Assembly (NCBI RefSeq): GCF_041248615.1
Contig: NZ_CP158426.1
Source: Escherichia coli
GTDB taxonomy: Bacteria; Pseudomonadota; Gammaproteobacteria; Enterobacterales; Enterobacteriaceae
DNA: 64,000 bases
Strand: one strand, 5' to 3'
Position numbers and translations under genes: made by a program. Position 1 is the first letter of the stretch. Each line of letters begins with the position of its first letter. A model generated the notes under the pieces. It was not told the DNA's origin. It ran no database searches and was given only the letters and a program-made list of their open reading frames with translations. This document shows positions 1 through 55,345 of the stretch, one piece after another.

Positions 1-2638
1 TTCCGCATTGCGTAGTAATGTCAGTATGCTCGGCAAAGTGCTGGGAGAAACCATCAAGGATGCGTTGGGAGAACACATTCTTGAACGCGTAGAAACTATC
101 CGTAAGTTGTCCAAATCTTCACGCGCTGGCAATGATGCTAACCGCCAGGAGTTGCTCACCACCTTACAAAATTTGTCGAACGACGAGCTGCTGCCCGTTG
201 CGCGTGCGTTTAGTCAGTTTCTGAACCTGGCCAACACCGCCGAGCAATACCACAGCATTTCGCCGAAAGGCGAAGCTGCCAGCAACCCGGAAGTGATCGC
301 CCGCACCCTGCGCAAACTGAAAAACCAGCCGGAACTGAGCGAAGACACCATCAAAAAAGCAGTGGAATCGCTGTCGCTGGAACTGGTCCTCACGGCTCAC
401 CCAACCGAAATTACCCGTCGTACACTGATCCACAAAATGGTGGAAGTGAACGCCTGTTTAAAACAGCTCGATAACAAAGATATCGCTGACTACGAACACA
501 ACCAGCTGATGCGCCGCCTGCGCCAGTTGATCGCCCAGTCATGGCATACCGATGAAATCCGTAAGCTGCGTCCAAGCCCGGTAGATGAAGCCAAATGGGG
601 CTTTGCCGTAGTAGAAAACAGCCTGTGGCAAGGCGTACCGAATTACCTGCGCGAACTGAACGAACAACTGGAAGAGAACCTCGGCTACAAACTGCCCGTC
701 GAATTTGTTCCGGTGCGTTTTACCTCGTGGATGGGCGGTGACCGCGACGGCAACCCGAACGTCACTGCCGATATCACCCGCCACGTCCTGCTGCTCAGTC
801 GCTGGAAAGCCACCGATCTGTTCCTGAAAGATATTCAGGTGCTGGTTTCTGAACTGTCGATGGTTGAAGCAACCCCTGAACTGCTGGCGCTGGTCGGCGA
901 AGAAGGTGCCGCAGAGCCGTATCGCTATCTGATGAAAAACCTGCGTTCTCGCCTGATGGCGACACAGGCATGGCTGGAAGCGCGCCTGAAAGGCGAAGAA
1001 CTGCCAAAACCAGAAGGCCTGCTGACACAAAACGAAGAACTGTGGGAACCGCTCTACGCTTGCTACCAGTCCCTTCAGGCATGTGGCATGGGTATTATCG
1101 CCAACGGCGATCTGCTCGACACTCTGCGTCGCGTGAAATGTTTCGGCGTACCGCTGGTGCGCATTGATATCCGCCAGGAGAGCACCCGCCATACCGAAGC
1201 ATTGGGCGAGCTGACCCGCTATCTCGGCATCGGCGATTATGAAAGCTGGTCAGAGGCCGACAAACAGGCATTCCTGATCCGCGAACTGAACTCCAAACGT
1301 CCGCTTCTGCCGCGCAACTGGCAACCAAGCGCCGAAACGCGCGAAGTGCTCGATACCTGCCAGGTGATTGCCGAAGCACCGCAAGGCTCCATTGCCGCCT
1401 ACGTGATCTCGATGGCGAAAACGCCGTCCGACGTGCTGGCTGTCCACCTGCTGCTGAAAGAAGCGGGTATCGGCTTTGCGATGCCGGTTGCTCCGCTGTT
1501 TGAAACTCTCGATGACCTGAACAACGCCAACGATGTCATGACTCAGCTACTGAATATCGACTGGTATCGCGGCCTGATTCAGGGCAAACAGATGGTGATG
1601 ATTGGCTATTCCGACTCAGCAAAAGATGCGGGCGTGATGGCGGCTTCCTGGGCGCAATATCAGGCACAGGATGCATTAATCAAAACCTGCGAAAAAGCGG
1701 GTATTGAACTGACTCTGTTCCACGGTCGCGGCGGTTCCATTGGTCGCGGCGGCGCACCTGCTCATGCGGCGCTGCTGTCACAACCGCCAGGAAGCCTGAA
1801 AGGCGGCCTGCGCGTGACTGAACAGGGCGAGATGATCCGCTTTAAATATGGTCTGCCAGAAATCACCGTCAGCAGCCTGTCGCTGTACACCGGGGCGATT
1901 CTGGAAGCCAACCTGCTGCCACCACCTGAGCCGAAAGAGAGCTGGCGTCGCATTATGGATGAACTGTCAGTCATCTCCTGCGATCTCTACCGTGGCTACG
2001 TACGTGAAAACAAAGATTTTGTGCCTTACTTCCGCTCCGCTACGCCGGAACAGGAACTGGGCAAACTGCCGTTGGGTTCACGTCCGGCGAAACGTCGCCC
2101 GACTGGCGGCGTCGAGTCGCTGCGCGCCATTCCGTGGATCTTCGCCTGGACGCAAAACCGCCTGATGCTCCCCGCCTGGCTGGGTGCAGGTACGGCGCTG
2201 CAAAAAGTGGTCGAAGATGGCAAACAGAGCGAGCTGGAGGCTATGTGCCGCGATTGGCCATTCTTCTCGACGCGTCTCGGCATGCTGGAGATGGTCTTCG
2301 CCAAAGCAGACCTGTGGCTGGCGGAATACTATGACCAACGTCTGGTAGACAAAGCACTGTGGCCGTTAGGTAAAGAGTTACGCAATCTGCAAGAAGAAGA
2401 CATCAAAGTGGTGCTGGCGATTGCCAACGATTCCCATCTGATGGCCGATCTGCCGTGGATTGCAGAGTCTATTCAGCTACGGAATATTTACACCGACCCG
2501 CTGAACGTATTGCAGGCCGAGTTGCTGCACCGCTCCCGCCAGGCAGAAAAAGAAGGCCATGAGCCGGATCCTCGCGTCGAGCAGGCGTTAATGGTCACTA
2601 TTGCCGGGATTGCGGCAGGTATGCGTAATACCGGCTAA
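1..2638 (+). CDS. ppc: Phosphoenolpyruvate carboxylase, 5'-truncated at window edge (about 5 codons missing)
   Basis: ORF 8..2638 continues in frame back to base 2; translation matches Ppc along its length, including [30 protein letters not shown] and the C-terminal MRNTG. The TTG at 8 is internal, not the true start. Confidence 0.97.
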
Positions 2639-2652
2639 TCTTCCTCTCCTGC

Positions 2653-2685
2653 AAACCCTCGTGCTTTTGCGCGAGGGTTTTCTGA
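2653..2685 (+). terminator. Rho-independent terminator downstream of ppc
   Basis: GC-rich inverted repeat aaaccctcgtgc/gcgcgagggttt followed by a T-run. Confidence 0.6.
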
Positions 2686-2820
2686 AATACTTCTGTTCTA
2701 ACACCCTCGTTTTCAATATATTTCTGTCTGCATTTTATTCAAATTCTGGATATCCCTTCAGATATCCTTAAGGAATTGTCGTTACATTCGGCGATATTTT
2801 TTTCAAGACAGGTTCTTACT

Positions 2821-4554
2821 ATGCATTCCACAGAAGTCCAGGCTAAACCCCTTTTTAGCTGGAAAGCCCTGGGTTGGGCACTGCTCTACTTTTGGTTTTT
2901 CTCTACTCTGCTACAGGCCATTATTTACATCAGTGGTTATAGTGGCACTAACGGCATTCGCGACTCGCTGTTATTCAGTTCGCTGTGGTTGATCCCGGTA
3001 TTCCTCTTTCCGAAGCGGATCAAAATTATTGCCGCAGTGATCGGCGTGGTGCTATGGGCGGCCTCTCTGGCGGCGCTGTGCTACTACGTCATCTACGGTC
3101 AGGAGTTCTCGCAGAGCGTTCTGTTTGTGATGTTTGAAACCAACACCAACGAAGCCAGCGAGTATTTAAGCCAGTATTTCAGCCTGAAAATTGTGCTTAT
3201 CGCGCTGGCCTATACGGCAGTGGCAGTTCTGCTGTGGACACGCCTGCGCCCGGTCTATATTCCAAAGCCGTGGCGTTATGTTGTCTCTTTTGCCCTACTT
3301 TATGGCTTGATTCTGCATCCGATCGCCATGAATACGTTTATCAAAAACAAGCCGTTTGAGAAAACGTTGGATAACCTGGCATCGCGTATGGAGCCTGCCG
3401 CACCGTGGCAATTCCTGACCGGCTATTATCAGTATCGTCAGCAACTAAACTCGCTAACAAAGCTACTGAATGAAAATAATGCCTTGCCGCCGCTGGCGAA
3501 TTTCAAAGATGAATCGGGTAACGAACCGCGCACTTTAGTGCTGGTGATTGGCGAGTCGACCCAGCGTGGCCGCATGAGTCTGTACGGTTATCCGCGTGAA
3601 ACCACGCCGGAGCTGGATGCGCTGCATAAAACCGATCCGAATCTGACCGTGTTTAATAACGTGGTGACGTCTCGTCCTTACACCATTGAAATACTGCAAC
3701 AGGCGCTGACCTTTGCCAATGAAAAGAACCCGGACCTGTACCTGACACAGCCGTCGCTGATGAACATGATGAAACAGGCGGGTTATAAAACCTTCTGGAT
3801 CACCAACCAGCAGACGATGACCGCCCGCAATACCATGCTGACGGTATTTTCGCGCCAGACCGACAAGCAGTACTACATGAACCAGCAACGTACGCAGAGT
3901 GCGCGTGAATACGACACCAACGTGCTGAAGCCGTTCCAGGAAGTGCTGAAGGACCCTGCGCCGAAGAAACTGATCATCGTTCATCTGCTGGGTACGCATA
4001 TCAAGTACAAGTACCGTTATCCGGAAGATCAGGGCAAATTTGACGGTAATACAGAGCATGTTCCACCGGGATTAAACGCAGAAGAGCTGGAGTCATATAA
4101 TGATTATGACAATGCTAACCTGTACAACGATCACGTGGTTGCCAGCCTGATTAAAGACTTTAAAGCAGCAGACCCGAACGGTTTCCTGGTTTATTTCTCT
4201 GACCACGGTGAAGAGGTTTACGACACGCCGCCGCACAAAACTCAGGGGCGTAATGAAGACAACCCGACGCGTCATATGTACACCATTCCGTTCCTGCTGT
4301 GGACGTCAGAAAAATGGCAAGCGACTCATCCGCGTGATTTCTCACAGGATGTTGATCGTAAATACAGCCTGGCGGAACTGATCCACACCTGGTCAGATTT
4401 GGCGGGCTTATCTTACGACGGTTACGATCCAACCCGTTCAGTGGTGAATCCGCAGTTCAAAGAAACTACCCGCTGGATTGGTAACCCGTACAAGAAAAAC
4501 GCGCTGATCGATTACGACACGCTGCCATATGGCGACCAGGTAGGTAATCAGTAA
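2821..4554 (+). CDS. eptC: Phosphoethanolamine transferase EptC (YijP), 577 aa
   Basis: ORF 2776..4554; N-terminal multi-pass hydrophobic region followed by a sulfatase-like periplasmic domain. Start placed at MHSTEVQAKP, the recognised EptC N-terminus. Confidence 0.9.
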   Translation: MHSTEVQAKPLFSWKALGWALLYFWFFSTLLQAIIYISGYSGTNGIRDSLLFSSLWLIPVFLFPKRIKIIAAVIGVVLWAASLAALCYYVIYGQEFSQSVLFVMFETNTNEASEYLSQYFSLKIVLIALAYTAVAVLLWTRLRPVYIPKPWRYVVSFALLYGLILHPIAMNTFIKNKPFEKTLDNLASRMEPAAPWQFLTGYYQYRQQLNSLTKLLNENNALPPLANFKDESGNEPRTLVLVIGESTQRGRMSLYGYPRETTPELDALHKTDPNLTVFNNVVTSRPYTIEILQQALTFANEKNPDLYLTQPSLMNMMKQAGYKTFWITNQQTMTARNTMLTVFSRQTDKQYYMNQQRTQSAREYDTNVLKPFQEVLKDPAPKKLIIVHLLGTHIKYKYRYPEDQGKFDGNTEHVPPGLNAEELESYNDYDNANLYNDHVVASLIKDFKAADPNGFLVYFSDHGEEVYDTPPHKTQGRNEDNPTRHMYTIPFLLWTSEKWQATHPRDFSQDVDRKYSLAELIHTWSDLAGLSYDGYDPTRSVVNPQFKETTRWIGNPYKKNALIDYDTLPYGDQVGNQ

Positions 4555-4628
4555 ATGACCTTTGTATCGCGTCTGGCGCTATTTGCCGGATGCGATACTG
4601 TCGCAATGTTTACATCGAACTCCCCTCA

Positions 4629-4656
4629 GGCCACACTTTTCAGGTGGCCTTTTTTA
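4629..4656 (+). terminator. Rho-independent terminator downstream of eptC
   Basis: Hairpin ggccac...gtggcc followed by tttttt. Confidence 0.6.
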
Positions 4657-4702
4657 ATAATGCCAGTTACTGTTTTCTCGTCTACATACCTAAGGGAATA
4701 AC

Positions 4703-5554
4703 ATGTATCACGACGTCAGCTATCTGCTCTCCCGCCTGATCAACGGCCCGCTGTCCCTGCGCCAGATTTACTTTGCCAGCAGTAACGGCCCGGTGCCCGA
4801 TCTTGCGTATCAGGTCGATTTTCCACGACTGGAAATTGTGCTGGAAGGTGAGTTTGTTGATACCGGCGCTGGAGCAACGTTAGTTCCCGGCGATGTACTA
4901 TACGTTCCCGCTGGTGGCTGGAATTTTCCACAATGGCAAGCCCCCGCTACTACCTTTAGCGTGCTGTTTGGCAAACAGCAACTCGGCTTCAGCGTCGTGC
5001 AATGGGATGGCAAACAATATCAAAATCTGGCGAAGCAACACGTCGCCCGACGCGGCCCACGCATAGGTTCCTTTCTGCTACAAACGCTCAATGAAATGCA
5101 AATGCAGCCGCAGGAGCAGCAAACGGCAAGGCTTATCGTCGCCAGCCTGCTTAGCCACTGCCGCGATTTGCTTGGCAGCCAAATCCAGACCGCCTCACGC
5201 AGCCAGGCACTATTCGAAGCTATTCGCGATTATATCGACGAACGCTATGCCTCCGCGCTTACCCGCGAATCTGTCGCACAGGCATTCTATATTTCGCCAA
5301 ATTACCTCTCGCACCTGTTTCAAAAAACGGGGGCCATTGGTTTTAACGAATACCTGAATCACACGCGACTGGAGCACGCTAAGACGTTATTGAAAGGCTA
5401 TGACCTGAAGGTAAAAGAAGTGGCGCACGCCTGCGGCTTTGTCGACAGCAACTACTTCTGCCGTCTGTTTCGTAAAAATACCGAACGCTCACCGTCGGAA
5501 TATCGTCGGCAGTACCACAGCCAACTGACAGAAAAACCGACTACTCCAGAATGA
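4703..5554 (+). CDS. yijO: AraC-family transcriptional regulator YijO, 283 aa
   Basis: ORF 4703..5554; C-terminal AraC-type HTH region (ISPNYLSHLF...NYFCRLFRK). Confidence 0.88.
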   Translation: MYHDVSYLLSRLINGPLSLRQIYFASSNGPVPDLAYQVDFPRLEIVLEGEFVDTGAGATLVPGDVLYVPAGGWNFPQWQAPATTFSVLFGKQQLGFSVVQWDGKQYQNLAKQHVARRGPRIGSFLLQTLNEMQMQPQEQQTARLIVASLLSHCRDLLGSQIQTASRSQALFEAIRDYIDERYASALTRESVAQAFYISPNYLSHLFQKTGAIGFNEYLNHTRLEHAKTLLKGYDLKVKEVAHACGFVDSNYFCRLFRKNTERSPSEYRRQYHSQLTEKPTTPE

Positions 5555-5882
5555 GATGGGTTTGCTGCGGCGCAGAAAGCACTTTGCGTACCGCGCTCAT
5601 CACCCGCTGCGGCTCACGCAGGAAAGCGTAGATGCTGCATTGCACATAGCGGCAATGTTCAAATCGCTCAGCACCGGCAAGCTCGATATCCGTAATCAAC
5701 AGCGCAACATCCGCCCGGCGGATATCCTCGTCCGCTAAACGATTCTCCGTTCCCAACGCGCCCTGGGTTTCAATGCTGACGCCCCACTTCTCTAACTGGC
5801 ACAACTTTTCCAGCCGTTCCGCCGCCATATATGTATGCGCCACGCCGCTTACGCAGGCGGTTACTGCCACCAGGTATGCCAT
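5541..5882 (-). CDS. frwD: PTS fructose-like IIB component FrwD, 113 aa
   Basis: ORF 5541..5966 trimmed to the MAYLVAVTACVSGVAHTYMAAE start; IIB-type CxxGxAHTYMA motif. Confidence 0.88.
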   Translation of the reverse strand: MAYLVAVTACVSGVAHTYMAAERLEKLCQLEKWGVSIETQGALGTENRLADEDIRRADVALLITDIELAGAERFEHCRYVQCSIYAFLREPQRVMSAVRKVLSAPQQTHLILE

Positions 5883-5883
5883 T

Positions 5884-6762
5884 TTAACCTCCCACGGTAA
5901 CCTGAAATCCGGCCCATTCTGCCATTTCACGCATCGTTGCCACATCGGCTGACGACGGCGCAGCAACCTCTTTCATCGACCATGTTTTCCCCAGCAGGCG
6001 GTATTTCGGCTCGCCGTACTGATGAAACGGTAACAGATGGATCTGCTTGATATTCAGCGGGATCAGCACGTCCAGCGCCTGCTGCATATTCTCCCGGCTG
6101 AGCGTGAAACCAGGGATCAGCGGTAAACGCGGGATCACGTTGACGCCCTCACTCACCAGCAAACGCAGATTCTCCAGCACGCGTGGCAGATTCATCTTCA
6201 CCACATCCCGCGCCTGAGTCGCGTCCATAATTTTTAAATCGAACAACACTTCATCGCACAATTTCGCCAGCGGTAGCAGCTTGCTGGCTGGCGCGTCTCC
6301 GGCAGTTTCAATGGCGCATGACACGCCCCACAACCGCAGCCGCTGTAAAAAACGGGTAGCAAACTCCGCCTGCATTAACACTTCGCCGCCAGAAAGCGTG
6401 ACGCCGCCGCCGGACGTGCGAAAGAAAATGTCATCTTTCATCACTTCACGTTCCAGCGCGTCAAGGCTGATATCGCGGCCAATCCGTTCAAACGCCCCGG
6501 AGGGGCATTCATCCGCATCACGCAAACATTTCGCACAGTGCAGACATTTCGCCTCTCTGCGTACCGTCTGGATTTTGCCGGAGATCGACTCCGGATTAGC
6601 ACACCATGGGCAAAGATGCGGACAGCCTTTAAAAAAGACCACCGTACGAATGCCCTCGCCGTCATTCAGTGAATAACGCTGAATGTTGAAAATGCGCGCC
6701 ACATCATTGCGGCGCGTTTCCACAACGTTACAGCTGATGCGCTGTCCGGCGGATGATGTCAT
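5884..6762 (-). CDS. pflC: Pyruvate formate-lyase 2 activating enzyme PflC (radical SAM), 292 aa
   Basis: ORF 5884..6831 trimmed to MTSSAGQ; radical-SAM CxxxCxxC cluster (GCPHLCPWCANPES) and additional Cys motifs. Confidence 0.9.
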   Translation of the reverse strand: MTSSAGQRISCNVVETRRNDVARIFNIQRYSLNDGEGIRTVVFFKGCPHLCPWCANPESISGKIQTVRREAKCLHCAKCLRDADECPSGAFERIGRDISLDALEREVMKDDIFFRTSGGGVTLSGGEVLMQAEFATRFLQRLRLWGVSCAIETAGDAPASKLLPLAKLCDEVLFDLKIMDATQARDVVKMNLPRVLENLRLLVSEGVNVIPRLPLIPGFTLSRENMQQALDVLIPLNIKQIHLLPFHQYGEPKYRLLGKTWSMKEVAAPSSADVATMREMAEWAGFQVTVGG

Positions 6763-9025
6763 CCTGGATCTCCTTCGACAATTCGACAAAGAAGGCGCTG
6801 TATCCGGCAACGCGCACCACCAGCCCGGCATAATCTTGTGGGCGCTGTTGCGCTTCCCGCAACGTGTCGGCGTTCACCACGTTAAACTGAATGTGTTGTA
6901 ACTTAAGCTGGGTAAATGCCCGTAAGAAGTCGGCCAGTTTGCGTAATCCCGCTTCACCTTCCAGGGTCGCCGGAGTGAATTTCACGTTCAGCAACGTACC
7001 GTTAGACAGCAGCGTATTATCGAGCTTACTGACTGACTTCAGTACCGCCGTTGGCCCTTGTGCGTCCTGACCCAGCATAGGTGACAAGCCGCCGTCTGCC
7101 AGTTGTTCCCCGGCAAAACGACCGTCTAGCGTCGCGCCAACCACCGATCCCAACGGGACGTGAGCAGAAACGGTATACGATCCCGGCGTGAAGTAGCCGC
7201 CGCGCGGGTTCTGGTATTTTTCCACTTCTTTGCAGTAGTGGCGTAACAGTTCGGCGCTGATGTTATCCACCTCGTCGATATCGTTACCGTATTTCTCGAA
7301 GCGGTTAATTAAGCGAGCACGGACTTTTTCGCCTTCTGGCGTTGCGAAGTTGGCTTTTAATACCGACAGCAATTCGTCAAAACTTAAACGCTGTTGCTCA
7401 AAAATCATACCTTTCAACGCATGGAGAGAATCGCTCAGGTTGGCGATACCGATCCCCTGTACGCCGGAGAAGTTATAACGCGCACCGCCATCGGTAATAT
7501 CGCGGCCTTTTTCCAGACAATCGCTGATAAAAGACGAGAGCAGCGGTACAGGTGCCCAGTCACGGTGACCGATATCGCAAATATTGCTGCCCTCAACCAT
7601 CAGGGTGATGTAGTGGCTGATCTTGGCGCGGATCTGCTCCAGTAAACCTTCATAAGTCAGCGCAGCATTGCCTTCATTTTCATGCAGGCAGATTTCCATC
7701 ACTTTCAGCAGATTAAACATCGCGATGTCATGCAAGCCGTAGGTTCTGCCGGGAATAGATAATTCCACACAGCCCACTACGGAATAGTCGCGCGCATCTT
7801 CCAGCGAAACGCCACGGTTGAGGAACGCTGGCACTACCACTTCATCGTTAAAGATTTGCGGAATACCGGTGCCGAGGCGAATGGTTTCTGCGGTTTTCAT
7901 CAGGAACGGCGTGTCGATCAAGGCGTTAGTGCGCACCCCCAGGTTCGGTTGCGGTAATTGCACGCTTTGATAAGCGTCAAGGCAAAGGAACGAAAGCACG
8001 TTCACCGCGCTACGTCCGTTCTCGGTTAACCCGCCGAGCAGTGCGGTATAGCCGGTCGGGAAACCGGCGAAATAACGCGCGCTACTGGTGGAGCGCAACA
8101 GCACGATGTCGTTGCATTTCACCCATAAAGATTCGAGCAGTTCTTTCAGGAACGCCGGATCTTCGCCCTGGGTTAAAGATGCCTGATAGAACGGCAACAT
8201 ATACTGGTCGAAGCGCCCTAAAGACAGCGAACTGGCGTTGGATTCGTATTGCAGAATGATGTTCATGTACCAGAATAACTGGCACGCCTGCCAGAACGTC
8301 TGCGGCTTATGTTCGGCGTTATGGCGAGAGATCTCCGCAATAGTCAGCAGTTCTTCGCGACGCTGGGCATCTGTGCAGTTTGCCGCCATCGTTTCCGCCA
8401 GTTCGGCGTAACGCAAAATGTGTTTCTGCGAGGCTTCGAGCAGTAACAGCGCTGCCTGATAAAAGTGATTCTCCGGCTGTTGCTGACAATGTTGCTGCAT
8501 CTGCGCTACCAGCTCACCCAGCCCGTGATTCAGCAGGCGCGGGTAATCAATAATAATGTGCCCCTGGCCTTTATCCGTCTGGTTGATGCTGAAAATCTGC
8601 GTGCTGGTCGCGGCTTTTACTTCATCCGTCATCTGCCCGTTGATGAAATCTTTCATCGAACGTTTTTCCCAGTACGGGAACAACTCTTCACGGTAGATAC
8701 GTTTATCTTCTTCGCTGATAGCAAAGCGGTCCTGCGGACGCGTCGGGAATTGATCCAGCTCTTTCAGCAGCCAGTAAGGGTCCATTTCCGGCGACATAAT
8801 TCCGGCGCGCGGTTTCACCGTACGGTTACCGGCAATCAGTTCTTCATCACGAATCGATATTTCAACATGTTCAAGGATATACGCTGTTGCTTTCGCCCGG
8901 CGCAATATCACCGGTTCGCCTTCGGTTTGCCGATGGCTGGCGGTATAAAGCAGCGCCCGCTCCAGCGAGATTTCACGGGTATTGGCAAACAGTGCAGTTT
9001 TGAGGCGAGAGATACGATTCGTCAT
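6728..9025 (-). CDS. pflD: Pyruvate formate-lyase-like glycyl radical enzyme PflD, 765 aa
   Basis: ORF 6728..9025; C-terminal glycyl-radical motif RVAGYSAFF; 35-bp overlap with pflC, typical operon arrangement. Confidence 0.93.
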   Translation of the reverse strand: MTNRISRLKTALFANTREISLERALLYTASHRQTEGEPVILRRAKATAYILEHVEISIRDEELIAGNRTVKPRAGIMSPEMDPYWLLKELDQFPTRPQDRFAISEEDKRIYREELFPYWEKRSMKDFINGQMTDEVKAATSTQIFSINQTDKGQGHIIIDYPRLLNHGLGELVAQMQQHCQQQPENHFYQAALLLLEASQKHILRYAELAETMAANCTDAQRREELLTIAEISRHNAEHKPQTFWQACQLFWYMNIILQYESNASSLSLGRFDQYMLPFYQASLTQGEDPAFLKELLESLWVKCNDIVLLRSTSSARYFAGFPTGYTALLGGLTENGRSAVNVLSFLCLDAYQSVQLPQPNLGVRTNALIDTPFLMKTAETIRLGTGIPQIFNDEVVVPAFLNRGVSLEDARDYSVVGCVELSIPGRTYGLHDIAMFNLLKVMEICLHENEGNAALTYEGLLEQIRAKISHYITLMVEGSNICDIGHRDWAPVPLLSSFISDCLEKGRDITDGGARYNFSGVQGIGIANLSDSLHALKGMIFEQQRLSFDELLSVLKANFATPEGEKVRARLINRFEKYGNDIDEVDNISAELLRHYCKEVEKYQNPRGGYFTPGSYTVSAHVPLGSVVGATLDGRFAGEQLADGGLSPMLGQDAQGPTAVLKSVSKLDNTLLSNGTLLNVKFTPATLEGEAGLRKLADFLRAFTQLKLQHIQFNVVNADTLREAQQRPQDYAGLVVRVAGYSAFFVELSKEIQDDIIRRTAHQL

Positions 9026-23658: not shown

Positions 23659-26054
23659 ATCGCCCCTGCGGTGACGTCGCGCCCCGCGCCAGGCCCACGG
23701 ATCACCAGAGGGTTATCGCGATACCAGCGGCTTTCGATGGCAAAGACGTTATCGCACGGCAGCAGTGATGCCAGCGGATGGTCTTCACGCACCGCTTCCA
23801 CGCCCACACGCGCTTTGCCATTGGCATCGAAACGCGCCACGTAGCGCAGCACCAGCCCCATTTCGCGGGCCGCTTCCAGCCGTTGCACCATCTGCTCGTT
23901 AAGTTCATCGCCGTTTTCAAAGAAATGGTCGATGCTACCACCTTCGCAATGGGCAGGCACCAGCGATTCCACGCGCACCTGATCTGGTTCGATGTCGTAA
24001 CCCGCTTCACGCGCCAGAATCACCAGCTTGCGCATCACGTCTTTGCCGGAAAGGTCATCACGCGGATCAGGCTCGGTTAAGCCCTGCTGCCACGCCTGAT
24101 CCACCAGCTCGGTAAACGGCACGCTACCGTCGAATTGCAGGAACAGCCAGGAGAGCGTGCCGGAGAAGATCCCACTGATCGACAAAATAGTATCGCCGCT
24201 GTCGATCAGATCGCGCACGGTATGGTTGATCGGCAAGCCCGCACCGACGGTGGCGTTGTACAGCCAGTGACGCCCGGTTTTTTCGAAGGCGTCGTGGATC
24301 TGGCGATATTTATTGCTGTCGCTGGCTCCCGCCAGTTTGTTGGCGCTGATGACGTGGAAACCGTGGCTGGCAAAATCGAGATACTGATCAGCAAGCTGCT
24401 GGCTGGCGGTAACGTCCAACACCACTAAATCATCATACGGATGGGCGCGCATCCACAGGAACAGCGACTCTTCATCCTGCTCGACCGCTTCATCGTTGAA
24501 GAAGGCTAACGCGCGGCTGGCGTCCAGCCCGTCATAACTCAACAGGCTACGGCGGCTGTCCACCACGCCTGCCAGCACAAATTCAAAGCCGGTACGCGCC
24601 GAGAGCGTGCTCTGCTCACGGGCGAACAGTTCCAGCCAGCGGGAACCGATATTGCCCTTGCCGAACAATACCAGGCCGATGCGTTTTTCTGCGCGGAAGA
24701 CGGACTGATGCAGCCCCTGAATCAGGCTTTCGGTCGGTCCGGTGCGCAGTACTGCCACCAGGCTGATGCCGTCATCCGACTGCCAGGTAAATTCGACCGG
24801 CTGGCCTTTCAGTTGCTGCCAGAAGCGGTGGCAATGCAGCGGGTTACGGGTTACGCCCGCCCCAACCATCGCCACCAGCGCCAGCCCCTGACGCAGGCGC
24901 AGTTCGCCAGGTAATCCCGCTTCGTCGAGGATTTTCAGCGCACTGTCGGCCACTTCTGAGGTGTAGCAAAATTGCAGCAACTGGCGATCGTTATGTACGC
25001 CAACCGCCAGTGGGCGCACCTGAGCACGTTTCAGGATCTGGTCGATCTCTTTATGCGCCAGTTTGAAATCCTGGCTGGTGGGCACCTGAAACTCAATCAA
25101 GCAGACATCATCGTGGCTGGTGACAATACGCGCACCAGTACCGGAGGCCAGCACGCGTTCAATGCGCGTGGAACCTTGATCCGGCGTGTAGCTACAGCGC
25201 AGCTGCAGGTCAATTTCGCTGCCAGAAACCGGCTGTAAAGTACGGGCGTGAAGAACGGGAGCCGCCAGACGCGCCAGTTCGCTGGCCTCATCCAGACGCA
25301 GCAACGGCAGCAGGCAGGCATCTTTCACTTTACGCGGGTCGGCACTGTATACCCCGGCGACGTCGCTCCAGATGGTGACGCGAGAAACACCCGCCAGCGC
25401 ACCGATTTGTGTCGCGGAATAGTCGGAACCGTTACGCCCCAGCAGCACCGTTTCACCGGCGTTGTTACGGCTGATAAACCCGGTCACCACCAGACGTTTG
25501 CCCGGATGTTGCACCAGTAGCTGTTGCAGCAACGGGTAAGAAAGCCCTTCATCAACCTGCGGTTGCGCAGCGCGTTCAGCGCGTAAAAACTCGCGGGCAT
25601 CAAGCCAGGCCGCTGGCAGCCCTTGTTGATTAAGCACCGCAGACATCAGGCGCGCCGACCACACTTCACCGTGACCCACCACTTCCGCATACACCGCATC
25701 GTTAATACCGCTGTCGAGCAGCGCCGCCAGGCGCTCAAGATCGCTGACAAAAGCGCTAATGAGGCTATCGGCTTCTTCGGCGGGTAGCAGGCCGCTAATC
25801 AGATCGCACTGATAGCGACGCAGCGTTTGTTGAACCTGATGCGCAGAGAGACGATCGGTCTGACTTAGTTTCAACCAGTTAATCAACTGGTTAGTGGTGC
25901 TACCGGCGGCGGAAACCACCATCATATCGTCAGGCTGAGAGTACTCCGCCATAATGCCCGCGACACGCAAATAACACTTCACATCAGCCAGACTACTGCC
26001 ACCAAATTTATGCAGTTGACGACCTTTCGCCCCTGCCTGCGCAATCACACTCAT
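23622..26054 (-). CDS. metL: Bifunctional aspartokinase II / homoserine dehydrogenase II, 810 aa
   Basis: ORF 23622..26054 (MSVIAQAGAKGRQLHKFGGSSLADVKCY...). Confidence 0.95.
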   Translation of the reverse strand: MSVIAQAGAKGRQLHKFGGSSLADVKCYLRVAGIMAEYSQPDDMMVVSAAGSTTNQLINWLKLSQTDRLSAHQVQQTLRRYQCDLISGLLPAEEADSLISAFVSDLERLAALLDSGINDAVYAEVVGHGEVWSARLMSAVLNQQGLPAAWLDAREFLRAERAAQPQVDEGLSYPLLQQLLVQHPGKRLVVTGFISRNNAGETVLLGRNGSDYSATQIGALAGVSRVTIWSDVAGVYSADPRKVKDACLLPLLRLDEASELARLAAPVLHARTLQPVSGSEIDLQLRCSYTPDQGSTRIERVLASGTGARIVTSHDDVCLIEFQVPTSQDFKLAHKEIDQILKRAQVRPLAVGVHNDRQLLQFCYTSEVADSALKILDEAGLPGELRLRQGLALVAMVGAGVTRNPLHCHRFWQQLKGQPVEFTWQSDDGISLVAVLRTGPTESLIQGLHQSVFRAEKRIGLVLFGKGNIGSRWLELFAREQSTLSARTGFEFVLAGVVDSRRSLLSYDGLDASRALAFFNDEAVEQDEESLFLWMRAHPYDDLVVLDVTASQQLADQYLDFASHGFHVISANKLAGASDSNKYRQIHDAFEKTGRHWLYNATVGAGLPINHTVRDLIDSGDTILSISGIFSGTLSWLFLQFDGSVPFTELVDQAWQQGLTEPDPRDDLSGKDVMRKLVILAREAGYDIEPDQVRVESLVPAHCEGGSIDHFFENGDELNEQMVQRLEAAREMGLVLRYVARFDANGKARVGVEAVREDHPLASLLPCDNVFAIESRWYRDNPLVIRGPGAGRDVTAGAIQSDINRLAQLL

Positions 26055-26056
26055 TT

Positions 26057-27217
26057 TTACCCCTTGTTTGCAGCCCGGAAGCCATTTTCCAGGTCGGCAA
26101 TTAAATCTTCGCCATCTTCAATACCGGTGGAGATACGCAGCAGCGTCTCGGAGATCCCGGCGGCAGCACGCGCTTCTGGTGCCATGCCTGCATGTGTCAT
26201 GGTTGCGGCGTGAGAGATTAAACTTTCCACTCCCCCTAATGATTCCGCCAGCGTAAACAACGACAGCCCGCCCAGGAAACGACGCAGCGTCTGCTCATCG
26301 CCATCCAGTTCAAAACTCAACATTGCGCCAAAGCCTTTTTGCTGGCGCGCGGCAATTTCATGCCCCTGATTTTCCGGCAGCGACGGGTGATACAGTTTTT
26401 TCACCAACGGCTGGGTTTGCAGATATTTCACAATCGCCTGCGCGTTGCGCTGGGCCAGCTCCATACGCGGCACCAGCGTTCGCAAACCACGTAGCAGCAG
26501 ATAGCTGTCAAACGCGCCGCCCGTCACGCCAATATTATTTGCCCACCAGGCCAGTTCGGTGACAACGTCCGGATCTTTAGCAATCACCACGCCGGCCACC
26601 ACGTCTGAGTGACCGTTCAGATATTTCGTGCATGAATGCAACACCAGATCGGCACCTAATGCCAGCGGATTTTGTAATGCCGGGCTTAAGAAGGTGTTAT
26701 CCACCACGCTCACCGCCCCGACTTCCCTTGCCAGATGGCAGATTTTCGCAATATCCACGACGCGTAACAATGGATTACTTGGGCTTTCTACCAGTACCAG
26801 TTTGGGGTTTTCTGCCAGCGCTGCCCGTAATGCCTGTTCATCGCCTTGATCAACAAACAACACGCGATAGCAACCGCGTTTCGCCAGGCTGTCGAACAGG
26901 CGATAGCTGCCTCCGTAGCAGTCGTGCGGCGCAACCAGCAGATCGCCAGGTTTCAAAAAGACGGTCGTTACCAGGTGAATCGCGGACATGCCGGTATTAG
27001 TAAGTACTGCACCAGCACCGCCTTCCAGTTCTGCCAGCGCACGCTGAACCACATCGCGCGTTGGGTTGCCGCGCCGCGAGTAATCATGCGCGCGCGGTTC
27101 ATTAAATCCGGTAAAGTTATAGGTGCTGGAAAGATGGATGGGAGGGACAACGCAACCATACTGTTCGTCGTCATTTAACCCGCTACGCACTGCGATGGTG
27201 GCCTGTTTACGCGTCAT
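26057..27217 (-). CDS. metB: Cystathionine gamma-synthase, 386 aa
   Basis: ORF 26057..27394 trimmed to MTRKQATIAVRSGLNDDEQYG; PLP-dependent Cys/Met-metabolism fold; 2 bp from metL. Confidence 0.93.
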   Translation of the reverse strand: MTRKQATIAVRSGLNDDEQYGCVVPPIHLSSTYNFTGFNEPRAHDYSRRGNPTRDVVQRALAELEGGAGAVLTNTGMSAIHLVTTVFLKPGDLLVAPHDCYGGSYRLFDSLAKRGCYRVLFVDQGDEQALRAALAENPKLVLVESPSNPLLRVVDIAKICHLAREVGAVSVVDNTFLSPALQNPLALGADLVLHSCTKYLNGHSDVVAGVVIAKDPDVVTELAWWANNIGVTGGAFDSYLLLRGLRTLVPRMELAQRNAQAIVKYLQTQPLVKKLYHPSLPENQGHEIAARQQKGFGAMLSFELDGDEQTLRRFLGGLSLFTLAESLGGVESLISHAATMTHAGMAPEARAAAGISETLLRISTGIEDGEDLIADLENGFRAANKG

Positions 27218-27278
27218 GTGATGAAGTTCCCTGGGCTTTGTCGGTGAAATGTCAGGCACCAGAGTAAACATTGTGTTA

Positions 27279-27312
27279 ATGGACGTCAATACATCTGGAC
27301 ATCTAAACTTCT
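27279..27312. promoter_or_regulatory. MetJ operator (met boxes) in the divergent metB/metJ control region
   Basis: Tandem octamers ggacgtca atacatct ggacatct aaacttct related to the AGACGTCT met-box consensus, between metB and metJ. Confidence 0.7.
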
Positions 27313-27493
27313 TTGCGTATAGATTGAGCAAATCCCAAATAGCCGTTAAAATTATATGCATTATCACGCCGACAGGTGCATTACACGATGTCACGGTAGC
27401 GCCTGTACGGTAAACTATGCGGGTTTACGGTCAGTACCCACATAAATTGTGTGGTCTGGTCTCAATTTATTGACGAAGAGGATTAAGTATCTC

Positions 27494-27811
27494 ATGGCTG
27501 AATGGAGCGGCGAATATATCAGCCCATACGCTGAGCACGGCAAGAAGAGTGAACAAGTCAAAAAGATTACGGTTTCCATTCCTCTTAAGGTGTTAAAAAT
27601 CCTCACCGATGAACGCACGCGTCGTCAGGTGAACAACCTGCGTCACGCTACCAACAGCGAGCTGCTGTGCGAAGCGTTTCTGCATGCCTTTACCGGGCAA
27701 CCTTTGCCGGATGATGCCGATCTGCGTAAAGAGCGCAGCGACGAAATCCCGGAAGCGGCAAAAGAGATCATGCGTGAGATGGGGATTAACCCGGAGACGT
27801 GGGAATACTAA
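27494..27811 (+). CDS. metJ: Methionine repressor MetJ, 105 aa
   Basis: ORF 27449..27811 trimmed to [45 protein letters not shown]. Confidence 0.95.
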
Positions 27812-27870
27812 AGCGGAAAAGAGCGGCGCGGAGTTAACCAGCCGCTTTTTTCATACATGGACGTTTAACG

Positions 27871-28479
27871 ATGAAAATCAGGCTACTGATCCTCAGCCTG
27901 CTGGTTTCTGTGCCTGCATTTGCCTGGCAACCACAAACCGGCGACATCATCTTTCAGATCTCTCGCTCATCGCAAAGTAAAGCGATCCAACTGGCGACCC
28001 ATTCCGATTACAGCCACACCGGTATGCTGGTGATACGCAACAAAAAGCCCTACGTTTTTGAAGCGGTCGGCCCGGTGAAATACACCCCGCTCAAGCAGTG
28101 GATTGCCCATGGTGAAAAGGGCAAATACGTTGTTCGCCGCGTTGAAGGCGGACTGAGTGTTAAACAACAGCAAAAACTGGCGCAAACGGCAAAACGTTAT
28201 CTCGGCAAACCGTATGATTTCAGCTTCTCGTGGAGCGACGATCGCCAGTACTGTTCGGAAGTGGTGTGGAAGGTTTATCAGAATGCGCTGGGAATGCGCG
28301 TGGGCGAACAGCAGAAGTTGAAAGAGTTCGACCTGAGCAGCCCACAAGTTCAGGCAAAGCTCAAAGAACGTTACGGCAAGAATATTCCGCTTGAGGAAAC
28401 GGTGGTCTCGCCACAAGCCGTTTTCGATGCGCCACAACTCACCACTGTTGCCAAAGAATGGCCGCTGTTTTCGTGGTAA
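27871..28479 (+). CDS. yiiX: Putative lipid-binding hydrolase YiiX (permuted papain-like fold), 202 aa
   Basis: ORF 27871..28479 with signal peptide MKIRLLILSLLVSVPAFA. Confidence 0.85.
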   Translation: MKIRLLILSLLVSVPAFAWQPQTGDIIFQISRSSQSKAIQLATHSDYSHTGMLVIRNKKPYVFEAVGPVKYTPLKQWIAHGEKGKYVVRRVEGGLSVKQQQKLAQTAKRYLGKPYDFSFSWSDDRQYCSEVVWKVYQNALGMRVGEQQKLKEFDLSSPQVQAKLKERYGKNIPLEETVVSPQAVFDAPQLTTVAKEWPLFSW

Positions 28480-28623
28480 TGGATGATAAAAAAAATAATT
28501 CCCGCCGTAGTCTGTTTGTTGCTTTGTAGTTGCACGACCTTTCCGCAAGCTGTCGCTCCGGTAAACGGTGATGCCTCCAATTAGTTGAATTAAGGATATA
28601 ATACTCGCTTTTAAGGTTGTTTC

Positions 28624-28896
28624 ATGGTCACAGTTAACCTTCATTGTCCCCGTTGCCAGTCCGTTCAGGTTTACCGTCACGGGCAGAACCCCAAAAGACA
28701 TGATCGATTCCGCGGCCGTGACTGTCACCGGGTATTTCAGCTCAGTTACTGTTACGAGCCCCGTAAACCAGGAGTTAAAGACCAAATCGCTGAAATGGCT
28801 TTCAACGGTGCCGGGGTTCGCTATACTGCCCTTACGCTGAAAATCGGCATTAATACAGTCATCCGAACTTTAAAAAACTCTCGCCACGAAAAATAA
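28624..28896 (+). CDS. insA: IS1-family InsA-like zinc-ribbon protein, 90 aa
   Basis: ORF 28624..28896; CPRC-x17-CHRVFQ zinc ribbon plus HTH region (GAGVRYTALTLKIGINTVIRTLKNS); roughly 40% identity to canonical IS1 InsA by eye. Confidence 0.75.
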   Translation: MVTVNLHCPRCQSVQVYRHGQNPKRHDRFRGRDCHRVFQLSYCYEPRKPGVKDQIAEMAFNGAGVRYTALTLKIGINTVIRTLKNSRHEK

Positions 28897-28922
28897 CGTC
28901 ATCCCCGGTCGCTCATGCTGAT

Positions 28923-29330
28923 GTGGCACTCATCTGCGAACTTAGTCAGCAATGGAGCTTTGTCGGCAGTAAAGCGCGACAGCACTGGCTCTGGTACGTG
29001 TACAACACGAAAACTGGTGGTGTTCTGGCCTACACTTTTGGCCCCCGGACTGATGAAACCTGTCGTGAACTGCTGGCGCTGCTTACCCTTTTACCATCGG
29101 CATGTTGACCACTGACGAATGGGGTAGTTACGCTAGAGAGTTACCAAAGGAGAAGCATCTGACTGGTAAGATTTTTACTCAGCACATTGAGCGTAACAAT
29201 CTGACCCTGAGAACCCGAATCAAACGTCTGGCCCGCAGAACCATCTGTTTCTCGCGTTCTGTAGAACTTCATGAAAAAGTCATCGGTGCTTTTATCGAAA
29301 ATATATGTTCTACTAATTGGAGTCATCACC
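28923..29330 (+). pseudogene. insB: IS1-family insB-like transposase segment, split across two frames
   Basis: InsB-like sequence in ORF 28923..29108 (EQWSFVGSKARQHWLWYVY) continues in another frame in ORF 29102..29416 (TDEWGSY...RSVELHEKVIG); frame break near 29100; the second ORF reads through the IS end. Confidence 0.6.
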
Positions 29331-29385
29331 CTTCTGATGAGCTTTCCTTGGATGATTACCAGACTGAATACACAGCCAAAGATTT

Positions 29386-29709
29386 TTACCTCATTCTGCT
29401 CTTTTTTCTCAAATGACATATATTATATTTTACATCATATTCATAGGCATATGACATTCCCCCGCCCCCCATTATGTCATTGTGGGTTGATGTTGGGCTT
29501 TCATAAAAAAATACATCTTTTTTTGAACTAGCATTAATTATATTTACTTTATATATTAAAATATTTTCTCCATCTGGAAATATTTTAGCCACACAATATA
29601 AAGCAGCTAAATCCGAATTACTTAAAAATATATTGTCATCACTCATAACTCCAGCCATTAAATGACTGGAGACTAAAGCAAGGAAATAACAACATTGTAT
29701 TACCTTCAT
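29386..29709 (-). CDS. Putative Rhs immunity protein, 107 aa, with N-terminal hydrophobic signal or anchor
   Basis: Native ATG at 29709 lies 1 nt after the reconstructed native rhs stop (TAA, 29713..29711). N-terminus MKVIQCCYFLALVSSHLMAGV; AT-rich DNA. ORF-track entry 29386..29769 is extended into IS5. Confidence 0.55.
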   Translation of the reverse strand: MKVIQCCYFLALVSSHLMAGVMSDDNIFLSNSDLAALYCVAKIFPDGENILIYKVNIINASSKKDVFFYESPTSTHNDIMGGGGMSYAYEYDVKYNICHLRKKSRMR

Positions 29710-29754
29710 TTTAATTACTCCCTTGCCTGATAATTGTAACTCCATTCCCTTTAG

Positions 29755-30950
<1,196 letters not shown>

Positions 30951-33900
30951 TTAGCTTTGGGATTATATTTTAGATAGGTGTTATTTGGTGTTCCCAAGTA
31001 ACTACTGTATTCTTTTTTTCCCATTCCATTCATATAAGAATTCGTTAAATCTTTGCTTGAAAAATTTAGACTATCATAAACATCATTTTCTTTTGTTACT
31101 TTATTGCCTTTATCGTCAGAGTAAAAACCGTGAGTGTGATAATCGCCTACTCTCTCTGAACCTTCAGGGCATTTTATATTTCGCAAGTCTACACTATCAT
31201 TATCATTTGAACTTATCGGATTCATGGGGAAATATTCACCTTGCTTCTTACATATTAGCCCACCATATTCTTTATTCTCGTTAATTGATTCTCCATTACA
31301 CATTGCCAATGCAAATATTCCAATATCATCTATATTTTTTGATTTAAATTCATATAATCCTAATGGATCTATATTTGAGATCGGATTCAACGGATACTGA
31401 TAAAAATTCCATCCCCCCTTCAGCCCAATCGGATCCTGAGTGATATACCGCCCCTGCAGCGGGTCATAATAGCGGTGGCGGTTGTAATAGAGGCCGGACT
31501 CCTCATCATACTGCTGACCCGGCAGGCGGATGAGCTGCTGCAGCTGGTGCGGGTTCTCTTCATTCAGCAGGTTGCCCCATTCATCGTATTCTGCGCACCA
31601 TTCTGTTGCCCCTTCCGTGCTGACAAGCGCCAGCGGCAGGCCGCGATGGTCGCAGTGGTACAGGTGGATTTTTCGCGCCGGCGTGTACACCGGGTCCATC
31701 TGGTTTTGTATCTGCTCCACCGTCAGGCCGCACGATGCCAGCCAGCGGCGGCTTTCCTCACTCACCCGGTCAGCCAGGATTTCACTTTCCAGCCGGTCGA
31801 GCATCTGCACCAGCACCGGCGGGAACACCACACTGCCACCGTCTTCACCGCCGGACTGCTGAAGCGCATCCGCCAGGCTGCGGCGCTGCGTTTTCGCCAG
31901 CTCACCGGTGGCAGTTTCAACTCTGATGAGTGGCGTGAAGCTCCCCGGCTGATAAACCGTCTGGATGCGGGTTCTGTCGTTCTGTATTGTGGTCAGCCGG
32001 TCGCCGTCCCAGCCGTACCAGGGCACTTCCGGTTTCCATGACAGCGACATCCAGCCCGTCAGGTCCCGTTCACGCCGCCATACCCGTTTTGCCACCCTGC
32101 GGCCCAGCAGGTCGTAAAGATAGCGACTTTCGACCAGCGGCTCTGCATATTGTGTCCGCGTGTAGTGCACCAGCCGGTGCCGGCTGTCGTAATGGTACCG
32201 GTGAGTCCGCTCATCATCCGTGCGGATAACCCCTTCCGGGATGAGGTCGGTTTTCTCCGTCAGCCTGCCGTGACGGTCATACCGGTAAAGATAGTGCGCG
32301 TCACGGGCGATACGGTTATCCGGCCATGCGCTGAGGGGGCTGTCCGGGTGCAGCTCCGGGTCGGGCAGGCGGTTGCCCGCCGGGTCCGTGGCATACGGGA
32401 TGCGGATATCAAGGTTCGCTGCCGTGGTGTGGACGCCGGTCAGCCTGCCGGTGTCGCTGTAGCTGTAACTCCGGGTCTGGCGCGGGCTGCTGATGCGGAT
32501 GAGTTCGCCGTTGTCGTTCCAGGTGTAATCGCGGTCATACTGCAGGCTGTTCAGGTGCTGGCTCTGTAACTGCCCGGCAGGGGTGTAAGCGGTGGTGAGT
32601 TCATAACGGCCGAAGCTGCGCAGCGTTTCCCGGTGCAGGCGGTCGCGGGTGAAATCCACCAGCGGTGTGTCGCCGAGTTTCATGCCTGACAGCCAGCCGC
32701 TGCCGTAGGTCAGCCATTCCACGGCGGGCAGGCTGTCCGGTATACAGCGGTTCGCCAGTCCCTGCGCGTTGTACGCATGTCTGGTTTCATGCTGCCAGAG
32801 CAGTGCTTCCGTCTGCGGGTGATGCACCGTCTGGCGCTCACCGGTCAGGCGGCCTTTCTCATCATACCCGTAATGCACCGTCACCCGGTGGCCTTCGCTG
32901 AGATGGCTGATTTGTGTCAGCCAGCCGCGTTCGTCGTACCGCCACTGTTCTGCGGTTTCACCATTCACCGTTCGCTGTGTGATGCGGTCTGCTTCGTCAT
33001 AGTGCCAGTGGGTGACCAGCCCCTCATCCTCGCTGCGGATAAGTTTGCCGGTCAGGTCGTGGTGATAACGCTGTGTGCGGCCGTCAAAGCCGGTTTCCTG
33101 TATCAGCCGGTCGAGTACATCGTAACGGAAGGTGGTGTGGCTGCCGTTTTCACTGGTCAGGCGGATGACCCGTCCGGCAGCATCGTATTCCATACTGCGC
33201 GTCAGACCACCCTGCGTGGTACGGATGGCCTTTCCCCACGTATCGTACTGTGTCCCGTTTCTGCTGCCGTCCGGGGCAATGACGGCGGTCAGGTCACCGG
33301 CGGCGTTGTATTCATACCGCGTTTCATGGCCCTGCATGTCTTTCACCGCAATTAACTGTCCACGGCTGTCGTATGCGCGGTACTGGCTCAGGCCTTCCTC
33401 GCGGTGCACCGTCGTCACCTGACCAAAACGGTCATGGTCATAGCGGGTTACATAACCGGAACAGTCGGTAAAGCTCAGCAACTGACCGTAACGGCTCCAC
33501 GTCATGGTTTTCCGGCTGCCGGTGGCATCTTCCGTTGCGCAGGGGAAGTCACTGTGTGGATTATCATAACGGTAGCGGGTGATATCGCCGTCAGGGGCGG
33601 TTTCCTGAATCAGACGGCCGGATTCATCATATTCCCGGCGTATTTCCAGCCCGTCAGTCCCGGTGGCTGACGTTAACTGGCTGTGGTGGTTATAGTAAAA
33701 CGCCGATGCCCTGCCATCCGGCGTGGTGATGCGCGTGATGAGGCCCGTCACCACATCCGGGCTGTATTCTGTTGTCCGGCCTGCGGCATCCGTCTGTGCC
33801 TTAAGCCTGCCCACCGCATCAAACTGACTCTGCGTGACGCTGCCGTCCGCGTGTTCCTTTTTCACCACCCGCTTCAGCCCGCCTTCGCCCTGCGTGTGCA

Positions 33901-34092
33901 GCACTTCACGGCGGTCCAGACTGTCGGTGATGGTGATGCGGTCTTTCTCATACTGATACGTGTAGCTTAAGCCTGCCGGGTTTAGCTGCTCTGTCACCCG
34001 CCCGTCGCTGTCGTAACGGTAACGGATTTCCGGCCGGCCCGCGCGGTGGTTGAACTGCACCCCAAATGTTGGACATAATCTGACATCTGAAG

Positions 34093-34623
34093 GTGCAGTT
34101 TATGAAACATTCATTTGAAGTAAAACTTGCCGCTGTAAATCATTACCTGGCTGGTCATGCAGGCATCATTTCTACGGCAAAACTCTTTCAACTTTCTCAC
34201 ACCAGCCTCTCACACTGGATTAATCTTTTTCTTCTTCACGGTCCTCGGGCACTGGATTGCAGACACAAGCGTAGCTATTCTCCTGAAGATAAACTTTGCG
34301 TGGTTCTTTATGCTCTCGGGCATTCTGAGTCTCTACCCCGGGTAGCTGCCCGGTTTAACATTCCCAGCCACAACACGGTTAAAAACTGGATAAAAGGCTA
34401 CCGCAAATCTGGTAATGAGGCCTTTATCAGGCGCAGGAAGGAGAAAAGCATGACCCGTTCTGATGATACCCATGAAAACGAGGCAAACATGACGCCGGAA
34501 GAGATGAAGAATGAGCTGCGTTATCTTCGCGCAGAAAATGCATATCTGAAAGCCATGCAGGAGCATCTCCTGGAAAAAAAGCGCCAGGAGCTGGAGAAAA
34601 AACGAAAGTCATCCGGAGCCTGA
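34093..34623 (+). CDS. IS3-family transposase OrfA (HTH), 176 aa
   Basis: ORF 34093..34623; HTH and leucine-zipper-like region; slippery heptamer near its 3' end. Confidence 0.85.
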
Positions 34624-34727
34624 GGTGCGGACACTGCCAGTCTGACCTGTTAAAGGCTGCAGGGCTGGCCAGAAGCACGCTGTACTACCAGCTGTCACTG
34701 CAGAAGGCTAAGGACAAGTATGCTGAT

Positions 34728-36530
<1,803 letters not shown>

Positions 36531-36648
36531 CGTAAAATCCTTTTGAAATAAATAAGAACCAGAAGCCTAGCGCCAGTCAACAACAGGAAATGATAATGAG
36601 TTAACACCCCGGAATTTTTCAGAATTTATAAAAGGCAAATTACAGGCA

Positions 36649-36677
36649 CAAAAAAAGCGCCATGCGGCGCTTTTTTC
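36649..36677 (-). terminator. Rho-independent terminator downstream of rpmE
   Basis: Hairpin gcgccatgcggcgc flanked by A-run and T-run (aaaaaagcgccatgcggcgctttttt); potentially bidirectional. Confidence 0.7.
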
Positions 36678-36689
36678 GGAAATCCGGTC

Positions 36690-36941
<252 letters not shown>

Positions 36942-36945
36942 CTAA

Positions 36946-39303
<2,358 letters not shown>

Positions 39304-55081: not shown

Positions 55082-55246
55082 CGCCAGACTCTCTTATGTT
55101 GTGTTGTGATGAGCAAAGCGTGCCAGAAGGTTAACCAAACATTAAAGAATAAAAAAAGATTGGCTATAACTTGCGGGTATATGTTGGGGGATTAAAAAGG
55201 CGGAAGAAATCCGCCTCATATTGCTGACAAAGTGCGCTTTGTCCAT

Positions 55247-55345
55247 GCCGGATGCGGCGCGAACGCCTTATCCGGCCTACAAAAGTTTGCAAATTCAATA
55301 AATTGCAGAATTCATGTAGGCCTGATAAGCGAAGCGCATCCGGCA
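55247..55345. repeat. REP/BIME element: two inverted REP palindromic units
   Basis: gccggatgcggcgcgaacgccttatccggcctac and its inverted partner gtaggcctgataagcgaagcgcatccggca. Confidence 0.85.

Follow-up and report, generated by a model that had tools for sequence, protein, structure and literature searches.

Two questions were raised by an IS1-like element at positions 28567–29330 (forward strand, as are all of its features below) of the window, the 64,000-nucleotide stretch of Escherichia coli DNA analysed here: whether its split insB reflects decay or the normal programmed frameshift, and why it lacks a target-site duplication. The initial annotation had offered decay of the copy and remodelling of its flank by the adjacent rhs island rearrangements as alternatives. 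Our results support both of them being true together. The element is very probably a dead copy of IS1H, passed on vertically and lying at a rearrangement junction; IS1H is a named iso-IS1 on the IS1N-like branch of the family. It is already catalogued and annotated, and there is nothing new in it: it is an ordinary IS pseudogene that borders an Rhs island and lies at an IS-end deletion junction.

The 764-bp element had terminal inverted repeats of 23 nt, with 21 of the 23 positions matching (E = 0.003 within the window), which bears out the IS1-like repeats reported before. The left repeat (IRL, 28567–28589, GGTGATGCCTCCAATTAGTTGAA) pairs with the right repeat (IRR, 29308–29330, TTCTACTAATTGGAGTCATCACC). 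Elements of the IS1 family measure ~740–800 bp and have ~23-bp imperfect inverted repeats starting from GGTGATG or GGTAATG. The window element agreed on both counts, and its ends could be aligned with those of IS1A. The gene layout was also that of IS1, with an insA gene for a zinc ribbon plus helix-turn-helix (HTH) protein, followed by insB′ in the −1 frame via an A6C motif. The insA ORF (28624–28896, 90 codons) was still open, and its product matched Pfam PF03811 and PF12759 (Zn_ribbon_InsA, 6.8e-19; HTH_Tnp_IS1, 7.8e-27), so that the InsA-like zinc-ribbon/HTH protein seen earlier is confirmed. The programmed −1 motif TTAAAAAAC (A6C) was intact at 28870–28878, where the InsA frame (mod 3 = 1) passes into the InsB frame (mod 3 = 0), and was the same as the IS1A motif in a pairwise alignment. 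Sekine and Ohtsubo reportedly showed in 1989 that IS1 frameshifts at A6C. An active element of this kind would make InsA and, when ribosomes slip by −1 on TTAAAAAAC, the InsAB′ transposase. By its ends, gene layout, slip site and domains, the element is a member of the IS1 family by descent. As a functional IS it falls short on two points, the continuity of its catalytic domain and the target duplication.

From canonical IS1 the element is clearly diverged, as had been stated. The K-12 IS1A shares with it the GGTGATG...CATCACC-type inverted repeats, the insA/insB′ layout, an identical TTAAAAAACTC slip site and the DDE_Tnp_IS1 domain, but IS1A is 768 bp long and active, and the identity between the two was 52% at the nucleotide level (global alignment) and 39% at the amino acid level. 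A BLASTN search of IS1A against the window gave no match at E ≤ 1e-3. The label "divergent" was an understatement, since this is a named element, IS1H.

As intact comparators we used copies from Enterobacter, three IS1N copies from Shigella dysenteriae, and copies from a Salmonella plasmid and an Escherichia marmotae plasmid. Aligned to the window element, all were 766 bp long and had a 695-nt CDS (231 codons plus the stop, minus 1 nt), which indicates a single programmed −1 shift in the intact relatives. The nearest of them were the copies on Salmonella enterica pSA20083530.1 and E. marmotae pEM148, with ~94% nucleotide identity to the window over the full length, ends identical except for one or two bases, and the same A6C site. 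Their proteins differed from the repaired window protein at 19 of 231 residues (~92% identity). Unlike the window copy, they had an uninterrupted 695-nt frameshift-fusion CDS, Cys31 and Asp108-Glu109, and the pEM148 copy also had an 8-bp target duplication. A protein search listed nothing above 87% identity across the full length, and the 92% identical intact proteins came only from the search of plasmid DNA, so that their absence from the protein search reflects its limits and not biology. The nearest well-known named relative was IS1N, the iso-IS1 of S. dysenteriae, with the same architecture and length class and nearly the same IRL and IRR, but with ~80% nucleotide identity, 83–85% amino acid identity to the repaired protein and a saturated dS (~1.3). 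The usual ISfinder thresholds for isoforms are >90% nucleotide and >95% amino acid identity. IS1N falls under them, and we rejected it as the isoform identity of the element.

The name IS1H was assigned through the product name given by PGAP to an identical RefSeq sequence, so the match to the ISfinder reference is an indirect one. The E. coli NRZ14408 genome (NZ_LT599825.1) was 100% identical to the window over 12.7 kb, and its CDS corresponding to 28624–29316 is annotated in RefSeq as "IS1-like element IS1H family transposase", a frameshifted pseudogene ending at 29316. Among the E. coli genome matches, copies with 99–100% identity carried the name IS1H. Same-locus copies with ~98–99% identity, and also the intact 94% relatives, were named only "IS1 family transposase". 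We infer that the IS1H reference entry is itself a member of this relic lineage. The literature found on "IS1H" consisted of catalogue mentions: IS1H stands in an IS table for E. coli W and Crooks (Table 3 of the E. coli W genome paper, PMC3032704) and in routine IS typing lists (PMC10383658). The "IS1H" of the K-12 literature (EcoGene, flhDC papers) appears to be a different thing, the eighth copy of ordinary IS1.

The flanking 9-mers, ccggtaaac (28558–28566) and cttctgatg (29331–29339), matched at three of nine positions, and the 8-mers were unmatched too. The mismatch of the flanks had been noted correctly: the window copy has no 8–9 bp target duplication. The sequence to the right of the IS starts with cttctgatgagc. 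Recently inserted intact relatives had 8-bp duplications, TGGTAAGT in E. marmotae pEM148 and GGGAAATT in S. dysenteriae IS1N, indicating that the family behaves normally. The duplication is missing in the window because the IS sits at a rearrangement junction, with a 550-bp deletion starting from IRL.

This junction became visible in a search with the joined flanks. To the left of the element, on the forward strand, positions 28483–28566 encode the 5′ stub of a TIGR02117-family gene, about 28 codons with a lipoprotein-type signal, cut by the IS; the 33-codon ORF at 28483–28584 is this stub running into IRL. In BL21 and MS14386 the left flank continued into an intact 624-bp gene of the same family (NCBIfam TIGR02117, 7.3e-69), situated between yiiX and rpmE. 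Bases 1–4300 of the MS14386 segment aligned to 24267–28566 of the window, ending exactly at IRL, and bases 4851–8300 aligned to 36643–40092. The 550 bp between them (4301–4850) were missing from the window. What follows the stub in the TIGR02117 gene, 550 bp in all, has therefore been replaced by IS1H and the Rhs island (28567–36642), with IRL as the exact starting point, and the suggestion that the flank was remodelled in the course of rhs island rearrangements proved right.

Three alleles of the yiiX-rpmE locus (window interval 28481–36642) were found in E. coli. The first has the intact TIGR02117 lipoprotein-like gene, and it is in this gene that the missing 550 bp were found, in 289 genomes including BL21 and the B lineage. 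The second, that of K-12, has neither the gene nor the island between yiiX and rpmE, and 13 unrelated nucleotides at the junction. The third, with the stub, IS1H and the Rhs island, was present in about 2,170 genomes. The right flank was detected in 2,169 genomes, and every match listed lay under dsORF-f3 and the Rhs gene. Both flanks were separated by the IS in 1,954 genomes.

How the junction arose, and in what order the events took place, we infer from this allele structure. The most likely route, at about an even chance among the variants considered, would be an adjacent deletion of the IS1 type, through intramolecular transposition that starts at one end of the IS and leaves it with an old flank on one side and a new one on the other. 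In the window, the left end of the element abuts codon ~28 of the TIGR02117-family gene, and the right end the AT-rich tail of the Rhs island. A deletion starting precisely at an IS end is a textbook product of IS1 intramolecular transposition, and Reif and Saedler are said to have described in 1975 that IS1 makes deletions precisely from an IS1 end. The frameshifts and substitutions described below would have arisen after the deletion, or independently of it.

Two other routes, both unlikely though to be taken seriously, would give the same end structure as the adjacent deletion, and the three are inseparable at this locus. One is homologous recombination of an IS1H copy within the TIGR02117 gene with a second copy at the Rhs island edge, with loss of the intervening DNA and one hybrid IS left between mismatched flanks. 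Its end product is identical to that of an adjacent deletion, including the homology to the uninterrupted allele that stops precisely at IRL, and active members of the clade do exist, with three matching places in E. marmotae pEM148. It needs, however, two insertions within a few kb, and most of the E. coli records had only one matching place among the near-identical matches listed. Nor does the element show anything chimeric, which is a weak test, as all copies belong to a single lineage.

The other, rated no higher, is that IS1H never transposed at this site but came with the Rhs island, whose end it had already formed in a donor, so that an 8-kb block (28567–36642) replaced the 550 bp by illegitimate or IS-end-mediated integration. 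In agreement with this, in all listed E. coli genomes the right flank and IS1H occur together with the Rhs element, the replaced segment runs from the IS end on one side to the island end (36642) on the other, and there are sharp changes of G + C content along the block (flank, 0.32; IS, 0.48; Rhs core, 0.57). An adjacent deletion is, however, more usual for IS1 than the one-ended integration of an 8-kb segment, and no copy of the junction in a donor or another species was found. The 21-mer of the right flank, with which we also looked for the pre-insertion site, gave zero matches in 100,044 species-representative genomes. Neither an empty site, nor a state preceding the deletion, nor an Rhs island of this type that was free of IS1H or had a longer left end was found among the listed E. 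coli matches of the right flank or in the scan of the species-representative genomes.

The break of insB had been placed near 29100 in the initial annotation, with the gene split between two frames, and the Pfam profile agreed. DDE_Tnp_IS1 was recovered in two pieces, with positions 1–55 in ORF 28923–29108 (mod 3 = 0) and positions 61–127 in ORF 29102–29416 (mod 3 = 2), locating the break between about 29086 and 29108. The N-terminal part of insB′, in the −1 frame (28875–29108), carries profile positions 1–55 and ends with TGA at 29106–29108. The lesion itself is at 29086–29088, where a run of three C stands in place of the four in intact IS1H-clade copies: GCC CCT TTT of the intact relatives has become ACC CTT TT in the window (29085–29092; gap columns 29085/29086). 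The C-terminal part (29089–29316) lies in two further frames and has kept the TDEW and IERNN motifs and profile positions 61–127.

Four further features had been missed: a second deletion, two changes at conserved residues and the intact −1 site at 28870–28878. The second deletion is at 29298–29301, where a run of four A replaces the five of the intact relatives and destroys the C-terminus (...IEKYMFY*). As a result the native insB stop, TAA at 29314–29316 within IRR, is out of frame, and the last ORF runs on through IRR to 29416. In the DDE domain, the Asp-Glu of ELDEQW was changed to Ser-Gln (D108S, E109Q; 28944–28949, AGT CAG in the window vs GAT GAG in the relatives). Both columns were conserved in all nine comparators, IS1A included, and the Asp (D108) would be the first D of the catalytic DDE triad. 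In InsA, the third Cys of the zinc ribbon was replaced by Gly (C31G; codon 28714–28716, GGC). [quoted passage not shown]

Hence a continuous DDE_Tnp_IS1 domain with its conserved acidic residues is no longer there, the domain being split over three frames and carrying Ser-Gln. Judging from two 1-nt deletions, the Ser-Gln change and C31G, the window copy is no longer able to make the InsAB′ transposase. An autonomous IS would have an intact transposase or multiple identical copies at different loci, and neither was seen: across 1,954–2,175 genomes the element occupied one locus each. A pseudogene flag was present on every copy examined (NRZ14408, EDL933, HB-Coli0, 14EC017 and the T6SS plasmid). 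Calling the element a decayed copy was accordingly correct: two frameshifting 1-nt deletions and substitutions of conserved residues are present, and RefSeq lists a frameshifted pseudogene.

We also compared substitution rates. Between yiiX-locus copies, omega was 0.3–0.76, calculated from 7–12 differences only. It was 0.26 for the window against the intact E. marmotae copy, close to the 0.30 for the intact Salmonella copy against the E. marmotae one. With so few differences, dN/dS is uninformative on neutral decay. That dN/dS does not clearly show neutral drift, and that insA is still an open ORF of 90 codons, both speak against a dead relic. The modest omega, from tiny counts, is compatible with constraint on the relic. 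It is nevertheless very unlikely that the relic has been retained by function, either through co-option of insA or the repeat ends (for example as a small regulator that binds DNA, or to bound or terminate the convergent dsORF-f3/Rhs tail) or through −1 slippage at a low rate on C CTT TTA, giving some product with InsB.

Even less probable is that the break at 29086–29108 is functional, with a second −1 slip on C CTT TTA restoring InsB, in an active variant with two programmed frameshifts. The shift needed is indeed −1, and there is a T-run at the site. A slip at C CTT TTA would yield ...LLTLFTIGM..., one residue off the relatives, and the same C3 run occurs in the 92%-identical 14EC017 copy at another locus. 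However, the intact members of the clade read straight through GCC CCT TTT, and in the incoming frame CTT TTA does not form an X XXY YYZ heptamer. The frameshift at 29298–29301, D108S/E109Q and C31G would disable the product anyway. Only a single locus per genome was found among the matches listed, and the 14EC017 copy is further damaged by a stop codon and two additional deletions. The insB frame break lies ~210 nt downstream of the normal programmed −1 site and is distinct from it, and at this position the frame continues unchanged in the intact relatives, so the reading that had been named as fatal to decay, a break that is simply this programmed site, falls away.

Homopolymer errors in sequencing or assembly, suggested by the position of both lesions in short runs (C3 and A4), are effectively refuted as the source of the frame breaks: the 764-bp length and the lesions recur in complete genomes of different lineages, sequenced independently and on different platforms. 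For instance, the copies of O157:H7 EDL933 and HB-Coli0, which sit at the equivalent place between yiiX and Rhs, had the two deletions as well as G31 and S108-Q109, and because the same lesions occur in these two genomes at the same locus, they are not a sequencing artefact.

Returning to the dead, vertically inherited copy, its distribution was wide. Matches to the element were found in 2,793 of the 5,426 complete E. coli genomes, covering at least 80% of it in 2,399. At least 95% identity was reached in 2,175 records, usually at one place per genome, and the element sat at the same spot beside yiiX in about 40% of the complete E. coli genomes. In a spread sample of the matches, all uninterrupted full-length chromosomal copies listed, from 100% down to 97.6% identity, were exactly 764 bp long, and four listed copies with an IS1F insertion spanned 1540 bp. 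No second IS1H copy was found within the 64-kb window; the NRZ14408 chromosome record shows two matching places. The comparison of these copies indicates that this is one old insertion, apparently inactivated before the lineages of O157:H7 EDL933, HB-Coli0 and the window split, or spread later by recombination.

For annotation, this means that the region is to be recorded as an IS1H pseudogene with two frameshifts, and the ORF at 28483–28584 as a TIGR02117 stub. The missing target duplication is to be taken as the mark of a deletion junction at the IS end, on the Rhs island border. The yiiX-rpmE locus has some use as a marker, having three alleles, and as a dated example of IS decay. Beyond annotation hygiene the result matters very little, and it will not surprise a specialist.

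IS1H-clade relics at other loci (14EC017 near sul2; the T6SS plasmid) were independently broken. The relic on the 14EC017 chromosome (extracted locus 3001–3763, near sul2) and that on plasmid NZ_OP290546.1 were 92% identical to the window copy and lay in a resistance region. The 14EC017 relic shared the C4-to-C3 contraction with the window copy and had, in addition, a stop codon and two 1-nt deletions elsewhere. The shared contraction may reflect a homopolymer hotspot or shared ancestry. The IRL pattern of the IS1H clade gave one match in the species-representative genomes, in a Lachnospiraceae metagenome-assembled genome (MAG). The contig concerned, SFGN01000258.1 (2240 bp, from a "Lachnospiraceae bacterium" MAG that is a GTDB species representative), was 96–97% identical to window positions 28066–29754 and 30951–31505, spanning yiiX, IS1H and Rhs. 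It is almost certainly an E. coli contamination of the bin.

The rest of the Rhs island (29331–36642) consists of dsORF-f3, an IS5-like insertion, a truncated Rhs core, IS1397 and an Rhs N-terminal fragment. The Rhs tail next to the IS (29331–29754) had a G + C content of 0.32, against 0.57 in the Rhs core and 0.51 on the yiiX side. The 107-codon dsORF-f3 within it gave no match to an NCBIfam model. The IS5-like element (29755–30950; ISKpn26 family according to PGAP) lay within the 3′-terminal part of the Rhs core ORF, flanked by a perfect 4-bp target duplication (TTAG, 29751–29754 and 30951–30954), and was absent from O157 EDL933 and HB-Coli0. The Rhs gene is split at about 34060–35470 by IS1397, an IS3-family element for which a programmed frameshift is annotated. 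The Rhs core (30842–34060) is without both termini, and an N-terminal fragment with DUF6531 (35475–36530) lies beyond IS1397. The IS5-like and IS1397 insertions mean that the Rhs toxin gene is broken by two further IS. We considered RhsF/RhsFI (PMC7618764) as a candidate for this locus and rejected it: it corresponds to ECs0604 in the S-loop 44 of EHEC, which is another locus, and that paper carries no mention of IS1. In the metJ-yiiX spacer, K-12 has a REP/BIME-type repeat of ~120 bp, which is absent from the window at 27835–27841. A copy of this repeat with 85% similarity was found at 55223–55344.
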